Of a DNA stretch of 64,000 nt, positions 4,006 through 41,224 are shown one piece after another. Under the pieces are notes generated by a model that saw only the letters and a list, made by a program, of their open reading frames with translations, did not search any database and was not told where the DNA came from. The DNA is taken from the NCBI GenBank assembly GCA_963514005.1, contig OY740800.1, positions 17,484,001 to 17,548,000 on the forward strand. Direction: 5' to 3'. Position numbers and translations under genes: made by a program. The DNA comes from Raja brachyura. Lineage: Eukaryota. Within the stretch, counting starts at the first letter, position 1, and each line of letters begins with the position of its first letter.

Positions 4006-4398
4006 CTAGTTGATGCCTGGATTAGATACAAGTAAAGGTTGGATAGACTCAGATTATTTTCTCTGGAATGTCGGAGGTTGATTGAAATATATAAAATTAC
4101 TAGACTAAGTGGGACCCATTGGGTCCCATGTTCACACGGGAGGGTTGGCCCACTGACGCAATATTCCACCTCACACCAATTCTAATATTGGTGGCCAGTG
4201 GGGAGTGGGGGGCTTTCTGGAGCGCTGGTATGGGTGTTGGTGGCTGCAGGGACTACTGGTCTCCAGAGGGCTAGTATGGACATTGTGGGCCAAATGGATT
4301 CTTGGGGTGGCAGCTCAGTCCCTCAAGCCTGATGTGCTGGCAGCTCACTCACGGCTGGTGGGCTGGCAGCTGACCCACAGCTATTCCTTGAAATTCAA

Positions 4399-4842
4399 TT
4401 TCAAGCAGAGTGCAAGGCCACCAAATTTAAATCCATTTTCCTACCATTTCAAGCAGGGTGCAAGGCCACCAAATTCAAGTGCAGTTTCTTACCTGTTCGA
4501 GCAGGGTGCAAGGCCACAGAATTCGTGAAGTTTTATACCATTTCAAGCAGGGTGCAAGGCCACCAAATTCAGGTACAGTTTCCTACCAATTCAAGCAGGG
4601 TGCAAGATCACCGAATTCAAGTGCAGTTTCCAACCACTTCAAGCAGGGTGCAAGGCCACCAAATTCAAGTGCAGTTTTATACCATTTCAAGAAGGGTGCA
4701 AGGCTACCAAATTCAAATGCAGTTTCGTACCATTTCATGCAGGGTGCAACGACACCACATTCAAATGCAGTTTCATGCCATTTCATGCAGGGTGCAAGGC
4801 CACCACATTCAAATACAGTTTCATACTATTTCAAGCAGGGTG
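4399..4842. repeat. 48-bp minisatellite, about 9.3 copies, inside the Helitron
   Basis: Unit TTTCAAGCAGGGTGCAAGGCCACCAAATTCAAGTGCAGTTTCCTACCA starts at 4399, 4447, 4495, 4541, 4589, 4637, 4685, 4733, 4781 and 4829. Confidence 0.95.
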
Positions 4843-5223
4843 AAACGACCATAAAAACCACCATAAAACTACACACTCACAGTTCATTGGACATTCAGTG
4901 TGTTCAGTTGATTCACAGCTCAGACAGAGTCGTGACTTCTCCCTCCCCCATCATGCAGAGACTGAGCCACACCCATACTTCCGGGTTTTATAATCCCTCC
5001 CCCTCTCACAGGAAACGGTGTGGCCTTCATGACGTGATTGACAGGAGAGAGATTCTCAACATTTTTTAAACACTAATAACACTTTTTTTTTCATTGATGG
5101 GAAGAATCCTCTGTATCTGATGAGCGGAGGGGGACTGAGTAAGATGGCCAAAAATCACAACCGTAAGTGGTAACGTTTTATCTAAAATCAATATAGTGCA
5201 AACAGGAAGTTGTCAAGTTTAGA

Positions 5224-18300: not shown

Positions 18301-19385
18301 ATTTTCCAAGAAAGGGGCATTTCTCCTGGAATGTGATTATTTAGTAATTTCCCAACGACATTCCAATATTAGACATCTGACACAGAATGAGGAACATCCA
18401 CAAGGATGCAAAGTAAGTACTAGGCAATTCTGTTTTTATATAATTAATTGCATTTAGTTAAATGATTTTATTGTTTATGTGGGTATCATGACAGAAGCCT
18501 CCTCGTGGCGATCCCCGGAAACGACGGCACGACGCGCTCTGTGGCACGTCAGGCGACCAATTCTGTCAACATGTTGGTCGACGACAGAAGCCAACAGCGA
18601 ACTACATGTCGTCCGACACACGAGCAAACGATTGTTTATGTATTTTAAGCATTTCGGTTTTTGCTTACTTTAAGTGCTACTTTGTAGGTGGGGTATAAGT
18701 CAACAATGGAAGATCAACAACAAAGTTTATTAGGTGAGTGGCCATTGTGGGCTTTTAGGCAGTGAGATCTGGTGACAAAAAGAACTGCAGGTGCTGAAAT
18801 ATGAGCAAAACACAAAATGCTGGAGTAATTCAGCGGATCAGGCAGTAACTGTGGAGGGAATTGGGTAGGCGACATTTTGGGCCGGGTGCCTTCTCCCGAT
18901 TCAAACGGAGACGCCATGCGCAGCAACAGAGTGTTCTGTGATGTTCTTTAGGTCACAGGGAGTGGGCAGGGCAAGAACAAGTTCTGCCCTCAAAATACTT
19001 CAAAAAGAAAGACTACTTCCTTAACTACATCTACTGGCTTAGCCAATTGCCACAGGTCCAAAATGTTTTCAAATGCTCTCACCATGTTTTGTAAAACATT
19101 CAAAAGCCACTAAATAAAATTAAAATAAAGGACAATAAAATGCTTAAAGCAATCAGACAACTAAAATACTAAGATTAAATGAGAACTTACCAGTTTGAAA
19201 TTTGATCTTTATTTTATGAGGAGTTACGATGAGGGATTACGTGAAGACCCCGCCAGCACGCATGCGCAACATTCTTCAAAGCAGTGGTGTGAAATCACAG
19301 ATACCAAAGTTGACTAACATAGTAAGATAAGAGATAACTTTATATACCAGTTAACCTTTATAATAGAGGGTTTGGGAGCGGAGGG

Positions 19386-19498
19386 CACGTAATCCCTCAT
19401 CGTAACTCCTCATAAAATAAAGATCAAACTTCAAAATGGTAAGTTCTCATTTAATCTTACTATTTTACTTCGGAGTCACGTGAGTGACTACGTGAAGA
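19386..19498 (-). repeat. ICR of DIRS A
   Basis: 19386-19464 is the reverse complement of 19165-19243 (3 mismatches). 19462-19498 is the reverse complement of about 23117-23153. The junction reads CTTACT-ATT-TTACTTCGGAG. Confidence 0.92.
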
Positions 19499-19659
19499 TT
19501 TCAAAGCTCTGTGATTTCATGCCCTGGAACGAGTCCATGCTCACACACTGCCATGCTAGGAAATGGAGGATGTAACGTATTTCAGACATGAACTGTGCTG
19601 AAAAACAAAAAGGTATTTATTTCATACCTAAAATAATAATGCCCCTACATTGGGTAAAT

Positions 19660-20628
19660 CATGAAACAGAACTTAAAATTTTTCCCGCAACTGTCTCAGG
19701 CCACTGGTTTATTATAGAAGCGCTGAAAAGTCCGTTCATTACTCCAACCCGCTGTAGCAAGGATCTACTGTAAGCCAGTAGATCCTAGCCGCCGATGTGG
19801 ATGCAGCCATGGTGGAGTGAGATTTTAAAATATTAGTGTCCACCCCCGCTGCACCCAATACCACCCTTAACCATCTGGAAATGGTTTGTACTGTGACCTT
19901 ATGGTGAGGGCGTTTGTGGCTAATGAGTAAAGCCCTCTCCGTCCCCCTGAGACTCTTGGTGACCTCCATATATCGCAATATATATGTCACGATGCAGAGC
20001 CGACAATCTGCAGGATAGGCCAGAAATTCTACTTTTTGGCCAGTGGATCCGGGTCTATCCTGTTTAAGTAACCCCTGTATAAGGAAGGTTATCTTGCCAT
20101 TAGTGATATACATGGCGTCCATACTTAGCTTATGTAAGGACTGGACCCGTTGTGCTGTTACAAGTGCCATTAACATAACCATTTTATAGGTTAATTTATC
20201 CAGTGTGAGTCCCGATATAGGTGTCCATCCTCGTAGCATAGTCAACACTATGCGTATGTCCCAAGTATGGGTGTATCTGGGCCTGGGGGGGGATTAGAAT
20301 TAAATATACCCCTCATTAGTTTAGATACCAGTGGGTGTGATCCCACAGCCAGGTGATCACACCCTCGGCCCAGATAATTGGATAGGGCACTACGGACACA
20401 ATTAATGGCACTGTAGCTCAATCCCTCATCAAAATGAAGGGTAGACAGGAACTCCAGCACTTCAGTGATGGTGGCTGTGTCGTATGAAGTGTTCGTTCTG
20501 ATGCAGAACACTTCCCATTTCTTCACATATATAAGATATTGTTTCCTGGTGGACTCCCTGCACGACGCTGTGATGACATTTATCGTCCTGTCGGAGAGTC
20601 CGTAGTCCAGAAATGGCCTGTTCAGAAT
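19660..20628 (-). pseudogene. DIRS A tyrosine recombinase (frameshifted)
   Basis: ORFs 20248-20634 (LEFL..L....LSYSAIN..RSALS) and 19739-20248 (ALVTAQRV, KSHSTMAASTS, i.e. HSTR changed to HSTM), plus an out-of-frame ATAGWSNE.TFQRFYNKP. Confidence 0.88.
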
Positions 20629-20639
20629 CTGCAAACCAA

Positions 20640-21747
20640 CAGGTTTATTCAGTCATGGCATGGCTGACTTTCCCCTGTTACAGGGTGTTCCAAAAGGCTT
20701 GGACGTTTGTTGATCCGAATGCAGGGTTCTGCAGCCATATTTTGTACTAGTGGGAACCATGGTTGGGTAGGCCAGTCGGGAACAACCAAAATACCCGTTG
20801 TGGAGTTTGTTTGATTTTTTGTAAGACCCGACTGATGAGGCAGAAGGGGGGAAATGCATAGAAAAACAAATCCCCCCAATGCAGCGAGAAAGTGTCCATC
20901 GCTGCTGCCCCAGGGTCTGGTTCCCAAGCAACATATGTTGGTAGTTGGTGATTCAATCTGGATGCAAAAAGGTCGATATCTGGTGTCCCATACCGTTCTA
21001 TAATATCGGCAAACACTTTCCGATCCAACATCCATTTGGTGTTGTCGTTGAATTTGCGTGACCAGGTGTCCGCTACTGTATTTAGCTTACCTGGAAGGTA
21101 AGTGGCTGAGATCCAAATATTCCTTTCCAGACACCAGTGCCAGATATTATTAACCAATTAATCGCATGATATCGACTTTATTCCACCCATATGATTAATA
21201 TAGATATATAATATTATCAATCTGTAATCGTACATGCAAATGGTGTATGTCTGAACAGTAGGCCCGGAGTCCATGAAATGCTCCCAACATTTCTAGATAA
21301 TTAATCCCTAGTGCTCCCAACAGGGTTAATTCTTGTGCACTCCATCTGCCTACCACAACTTGAGGTGGTATTAGTTGCTCCCCAACCTTTTGCACTGGCA
21401 TCAGTCTGTAATGTAACCATTTTGTTTTTGGTAAAAATGTTTGATACGAGCTCTTGAGATTCTCTGTTTGTCTTCTCAATTACCCCTTTTGCGTTTAATC
21501 TTAATAGTTCAGCATGGCCTTCTGTTCTCTCTTTTTGTGAGAGTATAAACTTCTGGCTAGGTGTATGCTGAACTGGGACGTGGAGTTCGTATACAAATTC
21601 AATTTTGTATCCCTGAATACTTCCGAGTATGTAAGGATCAGAGGTAAAAGTGTTCCACCCATGACGAAACAAGTGCAACCGTCCCCCAACCCGTGATGAG
21701 TCTAGACATGCAATGTCTTCGAGGCAACCTGACCCACCTACCTCCAA
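20640..21747 (-). pseudogene. DIRS A pol remnant: RT N-terminus fused to RNase H, plus methyltransferase-like domain
   Basis: VGGRL..F..GW...VSNIFTKNK|MVTLQTDAS.KGWGA (RT core absent), INYLEM, LPGKLNTVAD, DIDLFASRLNHQ and FYAFPPF, with multiple frameshifts. Confidence 0.88.
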
Positions 21748-21749
21748 GA

Positions 21750-22966
21750 TTATCGGCGGTTCTGTGTTGGTTGTCTCTGTCCTTGCTTCTTGTTCTGTTG
21801 TGTTGCTGCGGTGTGGGGATGGCGCATTTTCCAAGAAGGTCGGGCTGGGCCATGGTCTAAAAAAGACCGTTCTGCAGGTGGGCCGGCCTTCGAGCTTTCA
21901 CCACCAGATGGTCTCTCATTGTAACGGTGCCTAGTAGATGTGTAGGGGTGCTGCCGCCACTGATATAGGGTTTTGGAGGTGTTCGGCACCTTAATCATGC
22001 CGATTGCCTAAGCCTCCTCATCCAGTTTTTTTTACCAGTTTTGGGAGGTTGTCCCCAAACAGCAATGTTGGCGGCTGTGCACTGCTGGGCCTGCATAATC
22101 CCGCAAATTTGGGATTGACATGCAGGCTTTATGATGCTCTTCCTGTAGCTATTAATTTCAAATAGCGTATTACACAGGAGTGCTAGAGCGTCTTGAAGCT
22201 CTTCAGGCATTTCAACCCCATCAAATGTTCTGGCTACTGCTGTAATCCCAGCAACCAGTAGCTTGAGAATTCTTTGGAGTTTCACCTCCTGGCTCCTTAT
22301 GGTCGGACTCATGTTGCCCCAAATGGGGTTGTTGACAGCAGGTACATTTAGAGAAATACAATTCTCTGGCGCAAGGTATTTTTCTGCCGTATTGTTTATT
22401 GCCTGTTCCTGCAGATGGTTTGTTGCCATGTAATTAATACTGGCAGCCAGCTTGGGATGCAATGGCAGACCTTTTTGGGTAGGTATAGCAAATTTGTTGA
22501 CCATACCCAGTAGTTCTTCTTGCGGCACCCCTAACACAGGTGAGTCTTCAGCCATGTCCCCTTCTTCAGGGTTAGCCCAGTTCTGACCCCCAATGCTCCC
22601 CTGCGAAGAGGGTGAGATATTTGGCAGTCCTTGATAGGAAGATGCCGTCGGTCTGCGAACAGTGCCTAGTAGGTGCAAAAGCAGGTCACGCTGGAGCAAT
22701 TGCTCCACCATCTGCTCCATGCGGGTAAGACGACCGCCGTCGCTATCAGCGAATGGGGTGTCTTCAAGTCCGGACCCAGCCAAGTCAGCGGACCTGTCCA
22801 ACTTCCGGGTGGTTTTGCCGCCGGACCGCGGCGCACCTGCGGTCTGTTGCGGTGAGAAGTCGGGGGCTGCTGGCAGCACCTGCATCTCTGGAGAGTTGGC
22901 ACGCTGCTGGCTGCTTTCCACAGCAGCGATTTTTGCCTCTGCTCTCCGCGATTTCCTGGACTCCAT
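21750..22966 (-). pseudogene. DIRS A gag-like ORF1 (frameshifted near the 3' end)
   Basis: ATG in Kozak context at 22966. ORFs 21995-23008 and 21750-21998 are homologous to DIRS B gag (P.NC.SLNVP.VN.PIWGN.S..IR.QE.K.QRILKLL.AGITA). Confidence 0.8.
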
Positions 22967-25900
22967 GGTGCTGTTTTCCTGTAACACACAAACACACAGA
23001 GTCGCCACGAAACTCTACCAGACTGGTAAGTACTTACCTCCAGCTTTTTATTAACTTACGCTGGAGGAGCTTCCGCAATGCATTCGACGTTATGTCGCGC
23101 ATGTGTGCTGGCGGGGTCCTCACGTAGTCACTCACGTGACTCCGAAGTAAAATTAAACAATCGAATTAGCTAGCATTCTACAGTATATACACAGCATCGT
23201 TCACTGAGACGTATTTGTAACAATTACTTATAATAATTTAGATATTTATAAATTCCTTAATCCAGCAATGCTAATCGCCTTCCCATTGCCTGAAGGTCAT
23301 CTGAAATGACAGAAATGAGAGTGGGTTCGCAGCATCTGTCACGCTACCTTGGAAATGCAAAGTCAGCAGGAATACAGCATCAAAAGCTTCAGACAGCTCA
23401 ACTACTCACAAGCAAGTGACAGTACGAGCAAAGCATTGCATGTTAACCCAACTGTTATCCACTGCTTTCCCTTTTAGATGAATTATAAATAATCTAACAG
23501 TTAGAAATGCCACTAAAAATAGTGTCAGGTACGAGTATGCAGCAACTAGATAAAAATAAGCATGTTTCTGCTTAATTGTTGAGTGCATGAAGTCTCCTGA
23601 ATTATGTCCCTATCCTCAGATCAGAAAGGTGCGTTATCAGTAATGCAATCTCTGACTAGTGTGCAAGGAACCTCTGCTGACAGCTGCTCAGGTAGATCTA
23701 CTGCAATTGTTAAAATGGCCTTGGTTCTAAATATACAGCTAAATCATCAAATGATCTTGAATATTGTCTTTCTTCACGTATTCCTCTCGTGCTTTGAAAT
23801 GTTACATTTCATAGATCATTATAACTAAATATTTTAGGTTCCTCTAATCATTTCAAATACATCCCAAATGAGTTCTTAGATTTGTTTTCCTTGTAACGTT
23901 CCTAAGACAGTGAGGAGAGTCATTGGCAATGGTTTTGAGGCAGATCATAATGTTGCTAGATGGTTGGAGTGGTGTAAAGAGAAACCTGGTGGACAAATCA
24001 TATCATGCATATGTTTACTGTTTGCTCTTATTGTTTACCTATTAGGACAGAGAGGAAGGCTATGCAGGCAATAGGGTCCATGTTGACTTTCACCACAGCC
24101 ATCCAATCAGTCCTGTCCATCCCTCCTTGCTTCTTGTAGCCTTGCAATCCATTATTCTTTGTCACATACTCATCTACACTCTTTCGTTCTTTTCTCATTT
24201 ACTTGTGTTAATGGATGATTTACAGTAGCCAATTAATCTACCAGTAAATTCTTGGGGCATGGGATTAAAGTGGAGCACCCAGCAGAAATCCACAAAGTCA
24301 TGGTAAAAATATGAAACCTCCAGACCGTCAGCACCTGAGGTCAGGATCGAACCCCCGTTTCTGTCACTGTGAAGCAAAAGATTCAAATCCGTCTGAACTT
24401 GTTCCAGTTCAGAAATCTCTCTCCATATTAACCCTGTCTTGGGGTCAAGGAAAGTGCGTTCACATTGCGGCCCTGTTTCCACCAATCTTTCTACCACAAG
24501 AAGCACAAGAAGCGACACGACAGACACCACTGTATGCAGTTGCCAAGAAGTGTGTTCAGCTCTGGCTTAACAACTTCTAATCTTGTGTGTGGACTCGATA
24601 AGAAGAAGAAGCCCTGTCTTCACTTCTTCTGTGAACTGTCAATTGCACTTAATTGACCCTGAATCAAATGCCTAACAAGAGTTTTTCTCTTTAAATATTG
24701 CCCAATATAGTTTAAATTAAATTTTATAACGGACATGGTTACACTTTTAAATGAGGAAAATAACTAAATGACTGTTTCTTAAGGCATCTTTCAAAAATTG
24801 TCTTTAGACTCAGCATTTTTTGCAACCCTGGAGAGTTTATTACCATTCTTTGTCTGTTGAGAAATACTTAGTAGAGGTTTATAATTAGTTTAAAACGATT
24901 CTCGAGTGTTTCTCATTTCCAGTAAAATTAGCTGGTTTAGTTTAAATGTAGCAAAAGTAATAGCTTTTTGGTTGCTTATTAAAGTCATTTTGAATGATGT
25001 TTACTTAGGCTGACAGGTTCTCAAAGGCAGAAATGGGCACCCGTCAGAAAGCAAAGCTTATTATAAGTCTCACCAAATCCAGCTACAGAACTACACTTTC
25101 CCTGTTTCCCACCTGCTTTTTGCTGTGTTAAGCATAGGGTCCCCAAAGTCATGTTTACATTACAGCTTCTGTCGTTCATTTGTTGTGTATTTCCAGCAGC
25201 AGCAGAGTGGCAAAGATGTGAAGCCTCAATAATGTAAAGGGATTTACTCTGACCTCACTGAATTAAAGCCTCTAACCTGTTGACCTCACTGCAGATCTGG
25301 GCCGTGGAAATCTGTATTCATGTCAGGCTTCACAAAGGGAATCTCTAACCAAATTCAGCCTCAGGAAAACTGACAGTGGAGAGAGAGGGCAGGTGGTATA
25401 ATAAGTCCTACAGCAATAACGTGGTCACAGCCCAGTATAAATTTCGGAGAAATCACATTCAGTTTGCGTCAGAGGTAGCAGTTTAATCAGTTTGCAGTCT
25501 GCCAGCACTCTATTACCAGTCAGTCACTGGTACACCTCCGTGACTGGTTAAATCACAAGGGATCACAGTGTAGTAATGAGGTGTTTGATGGATTGGCCCT
25601 GTTTCAATTAAATTTGAACAGTGAAATCTCTCAATAATCTTTGCTCAAAACCTACCTTACTGCTAGAAGTCCCTAAAGTGAAGTTATGGTTGAGTGTGCA
25701 ATATTGTGCTGAAACTGTTTTCCAACTTTAAAAACTATACGTAAATAAATACAATAAAACACAAGTCTTGATGAAGGATCATTGACATGGAATATTAACT
25801 CTATCGCTCTTTCCACTGAACCTGCTACTGCTAAGATTTACAGCATTTTCTGTTTTAGTTCATACTATTAATATGCAAACTGAGCTCTAAAATACTTTAT

Positions 25901-28471: not shown

Positions 28472-29292
28472 AGATAAATGTGAGGTTATCCACTTTGGTG
28501 GCAAAAACAGGAAAGTAGATTATTATCTGAATGGTGGCCGATTATGAAAAGGGGAGATGCAACGAGACCGGGGTGTCATGGTACACCAGTCATTGAAAGT
28601 AGGCATGCAGGTGCAGCCGGCTGTGAAGATAGCGAATGGTATGTTGGCATACATAGCAAAAGGATTTGAGCACAAGAGCAGGGAGGTTCTACTGCAGTTG
28701 TACAGGGTCTTGGTGAGGCCACACCTGGAGTATTGCGTACAGTTTTGGTCTCCTAAACTGAGGAAAGACATTCTTGCCATAGAGGGAGTACAGAGAAGGT
28801 TCACCAGACTGATTCCTCAGATGGCAGGACTTCCATATGAAGAAAGACTGGATAGACTCGGCTTGTACTCGCTGGAATTTAGAAGATTGAGGGGGGATCT
28901 TATAGAGACTTACAAAATTCTTAAGGGGTTGGACAGGCTAGATGCAGGAAGATTGTTCCCGATGTTGGGGAACTGCAGAACAAGGGGTCACAGTTTAAGG
29001 ATAAGGGGGAAGTCTTTTAGGACCGAGATGAGAAAATCATTTTTCACACAGAAAGTGGTGAATCTGTGGAATTCTCTGCCACAGAAGGTAGTTGAGGCCA
29101 GTTCATTGGCTATATTTAAGAGGGAGTTAGATGTGGCCCTTGTGGCTAAAGGGATCAGGGGGTATGGAGAGAAGGCAGGTACAGGATACTGAGTTGGATG
29201 ATCAGCCATGATCATGTTGAATGGCGGTGCAGGCTCGAAGGGCCGAATGGCCTACTCCTGCACCTATTTTCTATGTTTCTATGTTTCTATGT
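28472..29292 (+). mobile_element. Young CR1 (HER1-like) LINE 3' part with an open ORF2 C-terminus
   Basis: ORF 28557-29192 gives [42 protein letters not shown], followed by an (TTTCTATG)n tail. Confidence 0.93.
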
Positions 29293-34350: not shown

Positions 34351-35578
34351 CACACCACTTTCCCAGAGGTTCTGCCAAATTCCCTAACCTTTAACGTGAC
34401 CCCATTCTGTAATCAGGGTATTGTACATTAATGGTTTTTTAACAACTCCGATTGCACTACAGTCTCACGCCCATCTGTTGCTTTGCACTTGTATTTTTTT
34501 TTGCTATATTTATAATTAATGCATGTATGCTATTTACTCTGTGAGTTTCATGGAAATTAGGAATTTCACCATGTATGATAATCAGCTAAACTAATCTAAA
34601 TTTACATAATTGGTCAAAGATAGAAAGACACACCTTGACCATTGTCCTCTGCTTCCAATCACCAAATTTTGGATCCAGTTTTCCAACTGGATCCCATATG
34701 TCCTGACGTCCAGACCACAACAATGCAAGCCAGAATCCACCTTTGTCAGAAGCCCAACTAAAGTCCATTACAATATTTTGTTGTCATAATAAATGTTCTT
34801 AATTATCTAAAGAAAAAAGGCGAGAGGCAGTCTCAGGAGGCATTATTATGTGAGCCGAAAGCAATGTAATCTGTAAAGACAGAAAAGGCAGAAAAGGACA
34901 CAATGTGCTGGAATAACTCAGCGTTTCAGGCAGCATCTCTGGAGAACATGGACAGGTGATGTTGCAGGTCAAGACCATTCTTCAGTCCAGTCTTTTGAAA
35001 ATAGATCCACCTTTATCAGGGAATTACTGGGTGAGCCAACACAAGCTAGATTAAAATATTTCTCGTCTTGATGTTTTAATTCACATCTTCACATAGCGTC
35101 ATAGAGTCATACAGTGCGGAAATAGGTTCATCGGCCCACACCAACCAACATGTCCCTACACAAGTCCCACCTGCCTGCATTTGGCCCATATCCTTCTAAA
35201 CCTGTCCTATCCATGTACCAGTCTAAATGGTACTTAAATGTTGCGATAGTACCTGCCTCAACTTCCCTCCTCTGACAGCTCGTTCCATACACCCACCACC
35301 CATTGTGTATAAAAGTTAACCCTCAGATTCTTACTAAATCTTTCCCCCCTAACCTTAAACCTATGCCCTCTGATTCTCAATTTCATTTCGGAGTCACGTG
35401 AGTGACTTCGTGAAGAGCCCGCCGGCGCGCATGCTCGACATATCGTCGCATCGCGTTGCTGCGACGGCTGGCGGTGGAGCGTGCTCCTCGCCAGCCCTTC
35501 CTAAGGGAACCACTGAGGTAAGTATCCTACCTTAAGTTGGTGGTCCTTGTTGTGTTGCTTTGTTTTCGCAGCAAGGAC

Positions 35579-37303
35579 ATGGATGGGAGCTCCAAGGGCC
35601 GGAGAACGTCTGGAAGAGGTTGCCGGTCAGCAGTCCCGGAGCCATTGATATCGGCGGTGCCTGCAGCGCAGACCGGGACTCGGGCGGGAATGTCGGTAAG
35701 CCCTGTGTTTACAGGTCCGGATCCGCCAGCACACCACAGTTCGGAGGAGTTCGACGAGGAGGAGTGTGGTGTGCCGCCAGAGCAGGAGGACCCTGCCATG
35801 GCAATCAGGTCGTCAGCAGGCTTGCTGGCGACCTCGAGCAGAAGGGTGCGTACAGCTGCACGGCCCTTTTCACTCAGCCCTCCGAGCAGGGGAAGGGCAG
35901 GAGCCCGGAAGTCTAACCCTGTAGGGGCTAAGGCTTTGCCTGCCGCCGAGGAGCGGTCAGGTTCCAGGGCGGGACCCGGGGCGGCTGTGAGGTCCAGTCG
36001 ACGCCCCCCAACTCTCGACGCCGGGACGGGTCGGTTGGGTCGGGTCTCGTCACGGTCGCCGAGCCCCCCATGGATGGGTGGGCGAGACCATGCGTCGGCG
36101 AGGTCCACGATGTGGGCAGCCGGCAAGCCCGCGCGGGCATCAGGTATCCAGGCTGCGGCTGGTGCCGACACTACGCCGCAAGTGCCCTTAGTGGCAGCGG
36201 CTTCAGCTCCCGCTAAACGGAGGCGGTTGAACACGCCCGCGCGGGAATCGCGCAGTTTCGCTTCGGCGGCTGTTAGCGACGACTACCGGCACCGGGTGGG
36301 CCTCGATGAGGTGCGGGCCGATGATAGGGGCCCTGGCCAATTTTCAGAGCCGGAGGACTCCGACCACCTGAGTGTTCAGGGTGAAGGGCGTATTGACCGT
36401 ATGGAGCGGCTGCTGGAGCTCCTGCTTCACGGTCAACAGCGACAGGCACAGGGCTGTTTCACCAACTTCCACCATCAGCCTGGAGCAGGATGAGGAGGTT
36501 TTGGTCGATCCCATCCCACCTCCGTCCGATTTACCAGCGGAGGGCATTCTCGATGTGGCCACTAGGTTCGCGGCCCCACACTCGTCTGGGCTTCCCCTGA
36601 ACTCGAAATTGGCAGCCACGGTGGACTTCCTCAACAACCATCAGCTCCAGGAAGAAGTTCTCATTCAGGCCATGAGCCGTCACAAGGCTCCATCCAACTG
36701 CAACTCCCTCAACGTGCCTGTGGTCAATACGCCGATATGGGGCAACATCAGTGCGGCTATCCGTCAACAGGAGCTGAAAAGTCAGCGGATCCTGAAGCTC
36801 CTCACGGCCGGTATTACCGCCTTTGTGCGGTCGGTTGATGGGGATGAATTAAATTTGGACCAGGAGGATGCTCTGGCTCTATTGTGTGCAACTCAACATG
36901 AGATCGATGGGTTCCGCAAAAGCAGCATCCGCCCGGCGCTCAACCCTAAGTTTGCAGGGTTGTGCAAACCATCGCCGCCGCCGCCGCCCCGTCAGCTCTT
37001 TGGCGAAGATCTCTCTAAGAGGGTCAAAGAGCTTGACGAACAAGCCAAAATGGTGGGACTCATGCGCTCTCACAGTGCCCCCACGCCGTCGGGCTCGAAA
37101 GCTCCGCTTGTTCGGCCACGAGGGTCTGCCAGCACCTCTACAAGGACCTACCCTCCAGCTCCACCCCGTTACCAACAGCCCCAGCACCAGGGGGCTTTTT
37201 TAGGCAAGGTCGGCAGAAACCCTGGTGGAAGATGAGGACGCCGCGCCCTCGAGCCAACCCAGCACCTGCACGTCCACCCACACGTATCAAGGACCGCCGG
37301 TAA
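35579..37303 (+). pseudogene. DIRS B gag-like ORF1 (two apparent frameshifts)
   Basis: ATG at 35579. ORF 35537-36493 carries RIDRMERLLELLL, comparable to RLTRMEQMVEQLL in A, followed by ORF 36372-37235. A shifted C-terminus PWWKMR...DRR-TAA (37303) matches A's PSWKMR...NRR-TAA. Confidence 0.8.
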
Positions 37304-37305
37304 CC

Positions 37306-39177
37306 ACGGAGGTGAGGCGGTCTGGTTCTCTCTTTTCTCTTTGTCTAACCTCACATGTTGGTGGGCGCCTTCGGTTCTTTTTGGGTGCATGGGGTGATAT
37401 TACTGGTGATGAGTATGTGTTACGAAATGTTCAGGGTTATAGCATTGAGTTTCTTAATGGGGACATTCCTCCATCCCAGCACAGGCCTGGTCGAACATTT
37501 AAATTGTCTGCTGCAGAACAGGCAGCAGGCTATAAGGAAATTTTGAGGCTAGAACAGAAGGGAGTGATAGAGAAAATGGTTCATGAGCCCGTTGAATTTG
37601 TTTCCAATATATTCACTCGACCCAAGAAGGATGGAGGCTGTCGAGTCATCATTGACCTGACTAGTTTAAATACTTTTGTAACATATACTCATTTCAAAAT
37701 GGACACTTTTGAAACAGCCAAATCTGTATCCATTCAAAAATATTATAGGAGGTTTCTGAAATTTATCTGGATGGGTCAACTCTGGCAATATAGGGCTTTG
37801 CCAAATGGGCTTACCACAGCCCCTCGATTATTCACTAAATTGGTGAAGCCACTTATGGCTTATTTACGACAACGACATCATATAGTAATGGCCTATTTAG
37901 ATGATATCTTAATTGTGGGCCACACCCTGGAATTGGCTCAACAGGGTGTTGCAGCTGCTGTCAATTTATTTCAGCAGCTGGGGTTCATTGTCCATCCAGC
38001 CAAATCAAGGTTCTGCCCCTCCCAGGTAATTCATTATCTGGGGTTTACGGTGGACTCTATTCGCATGAGGGTCACCATACCAACTAATAAGGTTGAGGAG
38101 GTCACCCAGGTGTGTCAAGGTTTAATCAGCGCTGGTATACCATCGATTCGCCATACAGCTATAGTAATTGGCAAACTTGTAGCATTGTTTCCGGCAGCCC
38201 GATATGGGCCTTTGCATTATCAGAATTTGCAAAGGGCCAAGATCGCTGCGTTAAGACAGCACGCTGGTCATTATGATCGACCAATGCAGCTGCCGCCTGA
38301 AGCGAGGGATGAGTTACGATGGTGGGTGCGCCCCATTAGTAACTCATTTAAGCCTATTATTGAGGCTAATCCGGTGGTATACTTGCAAACTGATGCGAGC
38401 TCTTATGGCTGGGGAGCTACGGATCATTACTCTAGTTGCGGGGGCAGATGGGATACCCTTGAGGCTACTATGTTGTTGTCACAAGGGATCAACTATTTGG
38501 AGCTCCTTGCAGCATTCCACGGACTTCGTGCTTATTGTTCCAAGGTTTTTGGGGCACATGTCCGTCTCCAAATAGACAACACCACAGCGGTGGCATATTT
38601 AAACCATATGGGCGGTACCAGGTCAGTTTCGTGTGATAAATTGGCTAACTCAATTTGGCTCTGGTGTGTTCAAAGAGACATTTGGATTTCAGCTACCTAT
38701 TTGCCAGGTGAGCTTAATACTGTGGCGGACACCAGGTCACGCAAGTTTAATGACAATATTGAATGGATGTTGCATCCTGAAATTTTTGCCAAAGTCACAG
38801 CCAAATTTGGGAAACCGGATATTGACCTTTTTGCGTCACGGTTGAACCATCAGGTACCAACATACGTCTCGTGGGAACCAGATCCTGGGGCTATGGCGCT
38901 AGATGCATTCTCGCTGGACTGGGGGAATTGGTTTTTCTATGCATTCCCCCCGTATTGCCTCATCAGTCGGGTATTACGAAAGATTCAGATGGATGCAGCC
39001 AAGGGCATCCTTATTATACCCGACTGGCCTACACAGCCGTGGTATCCGGTGGTCTTTGACATGCTCAGTGAGCCTTGGGTCCTTTTGAAGGGTTGCCCAG
39101 AATTGGTTACTCACCCTGTCTCAGGGGAGCCACATCCCTGCCATGGCTCTTTAAATTTGTTGGCTTGCAGGTTTTGA
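37306..39177 (+). pseudogene. DIRS B pol: RT + RNase H + adenine-methyltransferase-like domain; open frame, but RT motif A is deleted
   Basis: Contains LPNGLTTAPRLFTK, AYLDDILI, YLGF, LQTDASSYGWGA, INYLEL, IDNTTAVAY, NTVADTRSR, DIDLFASRLN, YAFPPY and PDWPTQPW. The DLxDAY motif is absent after FKMDTFETAK. Confidence 0.9.
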
Positions 39178-40153
39178 ACAGGCCGTTAGCCCAATACGGC
39201 CTCTCAACTCGGACCATGGATACCATTGCGCGTCGTGTCGAGAGTCAACAAGGCGAAGATACCGCTCACATATCAAGAAGTAGGAAGCCTACTGCAGCCG
39301 CTCTCGCATCAGGTACGATGCCGTGACTATAACCGACGTCCTGGAATTCCTCGCGGGGTTGCACCATGATGAACACTTAAGTTACAGTGCCATCAACAGT
39401 GCCAGGAGCGCGCTGTCATTCTACCTCAAGATTGAGGTGGGATCCAACAGGCTAGAGTCCAGACTCATGCGGGGTATATTCAATATGAATCCACCTACAC
39501 CACGCTACAATATCACCTGGGATGTCAGGGACGTTTTAACCCTGCTCAGGACGTGGTCCCCCATAGAAGGGCTCCAGCTGGACAAACTCACCATGAAGCT
39601 GGTGATGTTACTAGCGCTGACTTCAGCACAGAGGGTACCGACACTGCATAAACTACGTGTCGACAGAATGATGTCTACCCCTACAGAAGTAGTCTTCTTC
39701 GTTGATGAGCTACTAAAGCAGCATAGACCTGGGTGCACAGGGCTGCAGCTGAAGTTCCCGGCATACCCTGCAGATGCTAGGCTGTGTTTAGCCTCACATA
39801 TCCGTCACTATGTCAAGGTGACGGCATGCATCAGAGGAATGGAGAGATACCTGCTTGTCACTCATAAGAGACCTCATCATCGAGTGACAGTCCAGACGAT
39901 ATCCAGGTGGCTCCGGGTCGTCTTGGGTAAGTCAGGTATCGACACTAATGTGTTCAAGTCTCATTCCACCAGGGCTGCATCGACGTCGGCGGCGAGGGTC
40001 ATGGAGGTGCCCATGGACCATATTCTCGCCACAGCAGGATGGGCTAATGAAGCTGTGTTTCAGCGATTTTATAACAAGCCTGTTGCTGCTCCTCTACAGT
40101 TCGCGGAAGCCGTGCTGAATGCAGGTCAAAAACGTGGAGGTGTCCCCGCATGA
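39171..40153 (+). pseudogene. DIRS B tyrosine recombinase (frameshift near the N-terminus)
   Basis: Catalytic residues are recognisable: R (SAQRV), HSTR, GW and Y (QRFYNK). The N-terminal VLNRPLAQYGLSTRT is in a different frame from 39323-40153. Confidence 0.9.
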
Positions 40154-40296
40154 GGGGTTTTTGATTTGTTGTTAATAAATATGCTCTTGTTTTGCAGTAT
40201 GAACTATTTGAGCAAGTTTGTTCCTCCCATCCATCCCTGCTAGTGGTGTGTCAGCATGGACGTGGTCCAGGGCGTGTAATCACAGAAGCTTTGAAG

Positions 40297-40409
40297 TCTT
40301 CACGAAGTCACTCACGTGACTCCGAAATGAAATAGTAAGATTGAACGAGAACTTACCAGTTTGAAGGTTGATCGTTATTTCATGAGGAGTCGCGGTGAGG
40401 GATTTCGTG
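40297..40409 (+). repeat. ICR of DIRS B
   Basis: Reverse complement of the left end (35380-35416) joined through AAT to the reverse complement of the right end (40554-40632). Confidence 0.95.
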
Positions 40410-41224
40410 CCCTCCACGCCCAACCCTCAATCACCTTCACCTGGTAATTTGAGTCTCTTTCATCTTACTATGCCAAGTCATTTCTGTTACTGGTTTCTGT
40501 GATTCCACACCGCTACTTTGAAGAATGTCGAGCATGCGCGCCGGCGGGCTCTTCACGAAATCCCTCACTGCGACTCCTCATGAAATAACGATCAACCTTT
40601 GAACTGGTAAGTTCTCGTTCAATCTTACTATTCCCCTACTCTGGGCAAGAGAGTCTGTGCTTCTACCCAATCTATTCCTCTCATCTGGACACATTTGTTG
40701 CAAGTGTGTGTCAGAACACTCAAAGACAGCTCCACCTACACAAAAAGATAACAGCCACTTTCACATCAGCACAGCCTCAAAGCTGGTCCATCGGAGGCCA
40801 GAATGCTTTGAATAGAATAAAGTGGTGATTCTTGTGAAAAACAACCACAGTGAATGAGCTACACCATCAGTGGCCGTGTTGAAGGTAAACAACATAGAAA
40901 AGATCAGTGGAAACTCCAAAGTTCCCTCCAAATCATGTTGTAGTTGATGAGCAATATGTTCCACCCAACGCACAGGACTTGACTTATCAACAAGATGAAA
41001 GGTGCTCACAAAATTGTAGTTTAGCCATGGCTTTGGACAATGACATTTTGACAAAAAATTATTTTACCCTAAATATGTGCCCCAATTTTCGATACCTCTG
41101 CTTCACACTGCCTATCCTATCTATACCCATCATAATTTTATTTACCTTCAATTTTCTCGCTGAAATGGGACATTTGTTTGAAGGTTGATTCAAATGGTAC
41201 ACAACAAGTGAAGGAAAGAAAGAG

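Follow-up and report, generated by a model that had tools for sequence, protein, structure and literature searches.

Like the DIRS1-like elements described in the available text of PMC3266345, bioRxiv 10.1101/2021.08.05.455354 and PMC7192593, the elements studied here possess a frame named gag by its position, RT-RNase H-MT (pol) and tyrosine recombinase (YR) frames, inverted terminal repeats, an internal complementary region, ATT termini and a pol/YR overlap of the short type. In those portions of the three sources, no route for making YR is given for DIRS1-like elements. Neither PMC3266345 nor the Xenopus preprint (bioRxiv 10.1101/2021.08.05.455354) mentions splicing or introns in the text available, and the 12 listed of 20 places in the available part of PMC7192593 where such words occur concern a reporter intron, constructs or translation in general. 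For Ngaro elements, Poulter and Butler (2015), as quoted in the accessible part of PMC13003380, found that YR slightly overlaps the end of pol in the -1 frame and proposed a pol-to-YR frameshift; in the present elements, in contrast, the predicted slip is at the gag/pol boundary and YR would be reached by a predicted splice. In plant Ty1/Copia elements a conserved splice makes a Gag-only RNA and thereby sets the ratio of retrotransposon proteins (PMC5580714, available text). The DIRS splice would set a protein ratio too, but by swapping one enzyme for another.

No description of a pol-removing DIRS splice was found in a literature search that included the available text of PMC3266345, PMC7192593, PMC5633606, PMC13003380, PMC4157794, PMC6681497, PMC9341512 and two preprints; the main reviews and Repbase notes lie outside this scope and may mention it. 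The novelty of a plan in which pol is carried in an intron is regarded as provisional.

In this study, two DIRS1-like copies (A and B) were analyzed in a 64,000-nt stretch of Raja brachyura DNA, called the window below. We consider it probable, from the signals described here, that pol lies inside a predicted spliceosomal intron and is preceded by a predicted -1 frameshift site, U_UUU_UUA, so that one promoter would give Gag, Gag-Pol and a Gag-recombinase. On both RNAs the gag TAA would end translation for the majority of ribosomes, which would yield Gag. Ribosomes that slip would pass through a linker of about 39 codons into pol if the intron is still there and into the recombinase if it has been removed: unspliced RNA would give Gag-Pol, and spliced RNA, after the same slip, Gag-linker-YR. 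Unspliced RNA would be the normal copying template, and spliced RNA would be copied rarely, giving rise to pol-less elements. Retroviruses also have one promoter, a -1 slip for pol, a spliced RNA for env and unspliced RNA as the genome, and U_UUU_UUA is the slippery heptamer of HIV-1. The likeness would extend to a splice around pol for the 3' gene. In contrast to retroviruses, the donor here lies after the gag stop, so that the third gene's product would be fused to Gag and require slip and splice alike; that gene encodes the integrating enzyme, and no protease or env was seen.

On balance we favor a wider reading, in which gag-pol-YR DIRS1 elements would in general be expressed with pol in an intron, no recombinase would be made other than as a Gag fusion dependent on slip and splice, the acceptor would have moved between two places in pol, and spliced RNA would seed families of pol-less parasites. 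If this is true, exact junctions become checkable in existing RNA-seq, and the predicted YR protein becomes one of about 100 kDa, fused to Gag, in place of a stand-alone protein of 37 kDa. The acceptor move would offer a reason why both 'long' and 'short' ORF overlaps appear in the literature, the host splicing machinery would gain a control point between integration and reverse transcription, and one origin of non-autonomous DIRS families would be explained.

Two DIRS1-like copies and their damage

Both A and B are ordinary DIRS1-like members, and both are broken (Table 1). Compared with its family copies, B has single-nucleotide losses near positions 37205 and 39230 and a 57-nt loss at 37724. 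Pfam searches of the pol frame gave the matches listed in Table 1 and left RNase H unmatched; a motif in this frame is what we take to be RNase H. In YR, Phage_integrase was matched with E 2e-5, under the cut-off, and the Phage_int_SAM_4 match in A was above it. In total, 226 YR homologues were found, most of them listed with PF00589 and two named from skate. The gag frame is conserved across families at 580 aa and has no Pfam match; its label rests on its position. Terminal repeats in inverted orientation as well as an internal complementary region matching the 5' end, both hallmarks of DIRS1, were identified, and the termini are ATT in B, A and most fetched copies.

Table 1. Features of elements A and B in window coordinates. 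A slash marks a predicted exon/intron border.
Feature	Position	Strand	Remarks
Element B, full-length DIRS1-like copy, ATT at both ends	35380..40632	+	broken
B predicted small 5'-UTR intron, GAG/GTAAGT ... gcAG	35518..35571	+	directly before gag ATG
B gag	35579..37303	+	interrupted here; 580 aa in open family copies; family stop TAA 37301-37303
B T_TTT_TTA heptamer, predicted -1 frameshift site	37196..37202	+	gag Phe-Leu phase; -1 frame is the pol frame
B pol frame	37204..39177	+	RVT_1 E 5e-15; Dam-like E 7e-4, under cut-off
B predicted pol-spanning intron (RT-RNase H-MT), GAG/GTGAGG to TTGCAG/	37312..39170	+	1,859 nt here; family copies have 1,916 nt
B YR exon, first residues V-L-N-R-P	39171..40153	+	interrupted here; open copies have 327 aa
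B internal complementary region and right terminal repeat	40298..40632	+	arms 40331-40409 / 40554-40632
Element A, DIRS1-like copy	19165..23153	-	798-nt deletion in pol
A predicted small 5'-UTR intron	22979..23037	-	before gag ATG at 22966
A T_TTT_TTA heptamer	21858..21864	-	in gag phase
A predicted pol-spanning intron, GAG/GTAGGT to TTGCAG/	20629..21741	-	1,113 nt here
A YR exon, first residues I-L-N-R-P	19660..20628, end approximate	-	frameshifted; Phage_int_SAM_4 27.6 bits

Nine of 30 B-family copies were inserted at the same ATT of one repeat, as read from the 3' flanks of L001-L030, which points to a target preference. This repeat matches the LWNSLPQ codons of a fragment at window positions 28548-29192, presumably LINE-like. 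A tandem array of 48-nt units (7 copies listed) was observed at 4383-4860.

Splice-like sites on either side of pol

In each element the sequence-only reading had put a donor just past the gag stop and an acceptor where pol ends, and all four sites were found at the places it gave. In B, the TAA is followed by CC ACG GAG/GT, and ttggcttgcAG, whose AG occupies 39169-39170, immediately precedes the YR exon. In A (minus strand), the TAA at 21752-21750 is followed by TTG GAG/GT, and the acceptor AG lies at 20630-20629. Both junctions are in phase 0, as had been claimed, the donors in the pol frame and the acceptors in the YR frame. The identification of this TAA as the gag stop holds for the family (28 of 30 B loci) and fails for B's own reading, which is 1 nt shorter near 37205.

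The claim that GT and AG persist in divergent subfamilies was borne out. Close copies of B have GT in 30/30 loci and AG in 30/30, and close copies of A have GT in 26 of the 27 loci holding the site and AG in 29/30, although these copies are 92-99% alike and their retention of the sites says little. A fairer test was made on 40 loci chosen by the acceptor alone: two lack the pol start and were left out, and 37 of the remaining 38 have GT 8 nt past the gag stop. Among 17 copies that are 61-96% alike, the six acceptor bases do not vary, whereas in the pol core 32% of the columns are invariant. Since the acceptor pattern itself was used to choose 11 of the 17, the evidence on the acceptor comes only from the remaining six and from the separately picked loci. 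Loci chosen by YR protein or by donor mostly have TTGCAG at this place, the exceptions being deleted or mutated there. GT-type acceptors (AG/GT) made up 62 of the first 100, and about 30 were of the AG/AT type. The 8,537 donor motifs, which include GT by design, and the 11,110 intact acceptor motifs served as denominators only.

The donors match 6-7 of the 9 consensus bases. The pyrimidine tract at the acceptor is weak, and a branch point was not spotted by eye. Contigs of four runs (one guessed to be RNA, three of unknown kind), which can show presence only, were compared with a B copy; the predicted joint was not among the 15 listed of 84 joints. A hairpin over the donor was considered and rejected, as single folds differ and have just 3 pairs in common. 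The GGTCTGG right after the donor (window 37319-37325 and homologues) is nearly invariant, a fixed TCT codon included, which suggests an RNA-level signal.

More distant DIRS elements were collected from metagenome contigs. The scan gave 80 loci; removal of 39 near-duplicates left 41 distinct ones, and dropping L296 left 40 rows. These elements are related, and counts among them are not independent. Of the 18 elements with a readable gag/pol boundary (L296, L279, L295 and L254 left out of this count), 15 have a phase-0 donor no more than 63 nt from the gag stop, compared with 9/378 control windows; the other three have no scored donor. T_TTT_TTA or A_AAA_AAC stands in gag phase in 16 of the 18 (control 5/477), five of them having A_AAA_AAC.

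At the start of YR, 12 of the 40 distant loci have AG at the same spot together with a YR frame that closes within 25 codons, 25 lack the AG and have a long open YR frame, and 3 fit neither description (Fisher p 2e-7 for the association, rows not independent). A pyrimidine-rich YAG in phase, for the most part 67-73 codons upstream, was found in 23 of the 28 loci outside the AG group and in 37/444 of the control; the pyrimidine score is inflated by Phe/Pro codons. This YAG is the AGY Ser codon of FPPF-S in 15 loci, and FPPF-C is found in all 12 of the AG group. From these patterns it seems that the acceptor moved between two places in pol and that the YR frame is open from wherever the acceptor sits.

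Copies lacking exactly the pol interval

Genomic copies that lack exactly the predicted intron, which the sequence-only reading had proposed to look for, were found in the B family, in family C and in a pol-less family. Together with conservation across families, they support the putative pol-removing splice. A junction probe matched 3 places with no mismatch (control 0). When up to 2 mismatches were allowed, 111 places matched, against 6 in the control, and 97 of the 100 listed among them had the junction. One of these copies (L064) has both ends and is a whole B element minus exactly the intron, and its -1 frame is open from the heptamer across the junction to the YR stop. It retains the small 5' intron and is therefore not a copy of a fully spliced RNA. 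Two family-C copies have a second junction in common. A third junction is found in the pol-less family, which was founded by such a loss and comprises about 100 copies; L136, an unspliced relative, already carries the AAG variant of that family before GT.

In phylogenetic trees the intron-less copies need 3 origins on the gag side (L136 dropped from this tree) or 4 on the YR side. A single-clade origin was rejected, with p-AU values of 1e-11 and 5e-71, and of 7e-5 and 3e-7 when L064 was excluded. Because recombination could blur the two family-C events, two origins of exact intron loss are sure and three are likely.

Ordinary deletions were counted for comparison in a sample that leans towards intact copies: 29 were found in 134 loci, 2 of them of at least 1 kb and 3 with at least 4 nt of microhomology. 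There are 28,859 possible 4-nt pairs for such microhomology, and by our estimate about 6e-4 chance deletions would be expected at the donor/acceptor pair. Foreign sequence to the left of the B/C exon start was observed at 6 places with a pattern that misses some left ends; 3 were the junction, 2 were 1-nt insertions and 1 was an isolated fragment, so that within this scope the exon's first base had no other partner. On these counts, chance deletion appears an unlikely source of the exact losses. Every exact loss comes from families with AG/GT at both ends (4 nt of microhomology), and none is listed from AG/AT families; given 62/100 GT-type acceptors, three of three losses being of this type has a p of about 0.24. 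A search for exact losses in the A family returned 0 with the window variant, and the other probe returned only the two family-C copies.

Within the pol-less family (L109-L135, L137-L141), YR is mostly broken and the YR side looks mosaic. In some copies an additional 2 kb or so lies between the 5' end and the gag core. A second non-autonomous family, marked by several pol and YR deletions (L144, L145, L148, L150, L151, L153, L209, L211, L215, L216) was also identified, in which the donor is kept and the heptamer has decayed.

Routes to pol and the recombinase

Judging from its frame, YR is without a start of its own. Upstream of the acceptor the frame closes within 37 codons in 40/40 loci, mostly at 8, and a Met occurs there in 1. 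The statement that YR has no ATG at its N-terminus is correct at the junction and needs amending further in: in the YR of B, an ATG in frame lies 15 codons past the acceptor, and in the A-like and E families (12/40 loci) the first Met is at about residue 105.

The T_TTT_TTA heptamer was overlooked by the sequence-only reading. It is located about 105-145 nt upstream of the post-stop codon and is in gag Phe-Leu phase in 33/38 loci; the -1 frame is open from the heptamer to the donor in 31/38. With this slippery site, pol and YR are both likely to be made as Gag fusions. The heptamer decays in the pol-less family. It is absent in 6/6 copies of a further lineage (L146, L147, L149, L152, L203, L207; 70-99% alike), where gag reads in frame into pol in 4 copies and is shifted by deletions in 2. 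Donor and acceptor remain in this lineage, of which every copy is old and broken. A frameshift stimulator was sought downstream of the heptamer: a 4-bp stem 6 nt past it has 89% of cells paired, and 115 of 500 shuffles were as high, so that the hairpin is not above shuffles.

It had been proposed that pol and YR share a start codon just past the gag stop. If the splice is real and both enzymes start there (TAA-CC-ATG, by re-initiation), they would not be Gag fusions. The codon is ATG in 23/38 loci, in the strong context ACCATGG, and this ATG is also retained in the in-frame lineage and in the pol-less family. ACG and TTG, moreover, are near-cognate starts. However, the codon is ACA in 8 loci and AGG in 2, including copies with open pol (640 aa) and YR (327 aa), Met is absent before the donor in 10 of the 15 distant elements, and the heptamer would be left unexplained. 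As a general route the shared start codon is not supported, and we regard this reading as unlikely, while re-initiation at ATG may serve as an added route in some families. A slip of another kind would dispense with splicing altogether: ribosomes would enter YR through a second -1 frameshift, located where pol and YR shortly overlap, and the pol-less copies would be microhomology deletions. The YR frame is indeed -1 relative to that of pol, T_TTA_AAT occurs in the overlap of the B group, AGGT microhomology is present in all exact losses, and a pol-to-YR frameshift was proposed for Ngaro by Poulter and Butler (2015; via the available part of PMC13003380). Such a slip would need a slippery site in those few overlap codons, and only the B group has one; no slippery heptamer is present there in the A, D and E families. 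The donor, the repeated exact loss and the acceptor shift would also find no explanation, which makes this reading quite unlikely.

The frameshift in gag could itself be dispensed with if the 5'-UTR donor were spliced to TTTTTTAG, read as an acceptor. Gag would then be removed, and pol or YR would start at a pol-frame NTG in the linker. In keeping with this, even those E-type copies that have no acceptor before the gag ATG retain the 5' donor, and an invariant TGG gives a pol-frame NTG-G (with a full Kozak ATG in family C). The A_AAA_AAC of five distant elements, though, cannot be a pyrimidine tract, so a reading of the T run as a splice acceptor is disfavored; the T run is in exact gag phase and is absent where gag and pol are in frame, and no B copy with a joint from the 5' donor to the heptamer was found. 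We consider this reading very unlikely. Finally, the signals could be by-products of protein constraint (E-V at the start of pol, C-R at its end), with YR starting at an internal ATG. The acceptor TGCAG does overlap the Cys-Arg codons of pol, and B has its Met 15 codons in. Against this, third positions of the pol core are seldom fixed in the 17 copies (2/64 four-fold, 5/48 two-fold, and Arg as AGR only in 1/8), the residue preceding Cys-Arg varies while the six acceptor bases do not, and a start at about residue 105 in the 12 loci mentioned above would drop the N-terminal domain. We therefore hold this explanation to be highly improbable, and retain the predicted pol-spanning intron combined with a -1 slip in gag, from which we infer splicing in cells and fusion proteins.

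Two conserved features outside the pol interval were also recorded. In the gag tail, an invariant TGGAA (window 37226-37230 and homologues) provides a pol-frame NTG-G codon, with the full GCCACCATGG in family C. In the 5' UTR, joints at the donor were found in B at 8 places versus 4 in the control, none of them a predicted joint, and no B copies lacking the small 5' intron were found. This near-perfect donor, AG/GTAAG, is located about 139 nt from the 5' end and is kept across families (window 35518 on the plus and 23037 on the minus strand; L162-L201). An acceptor is present just before the gag ATG in most families and in none of 8 E-type copies. The donor may serve to bind U1 with some other function, or it may lie beside a packaging signal.
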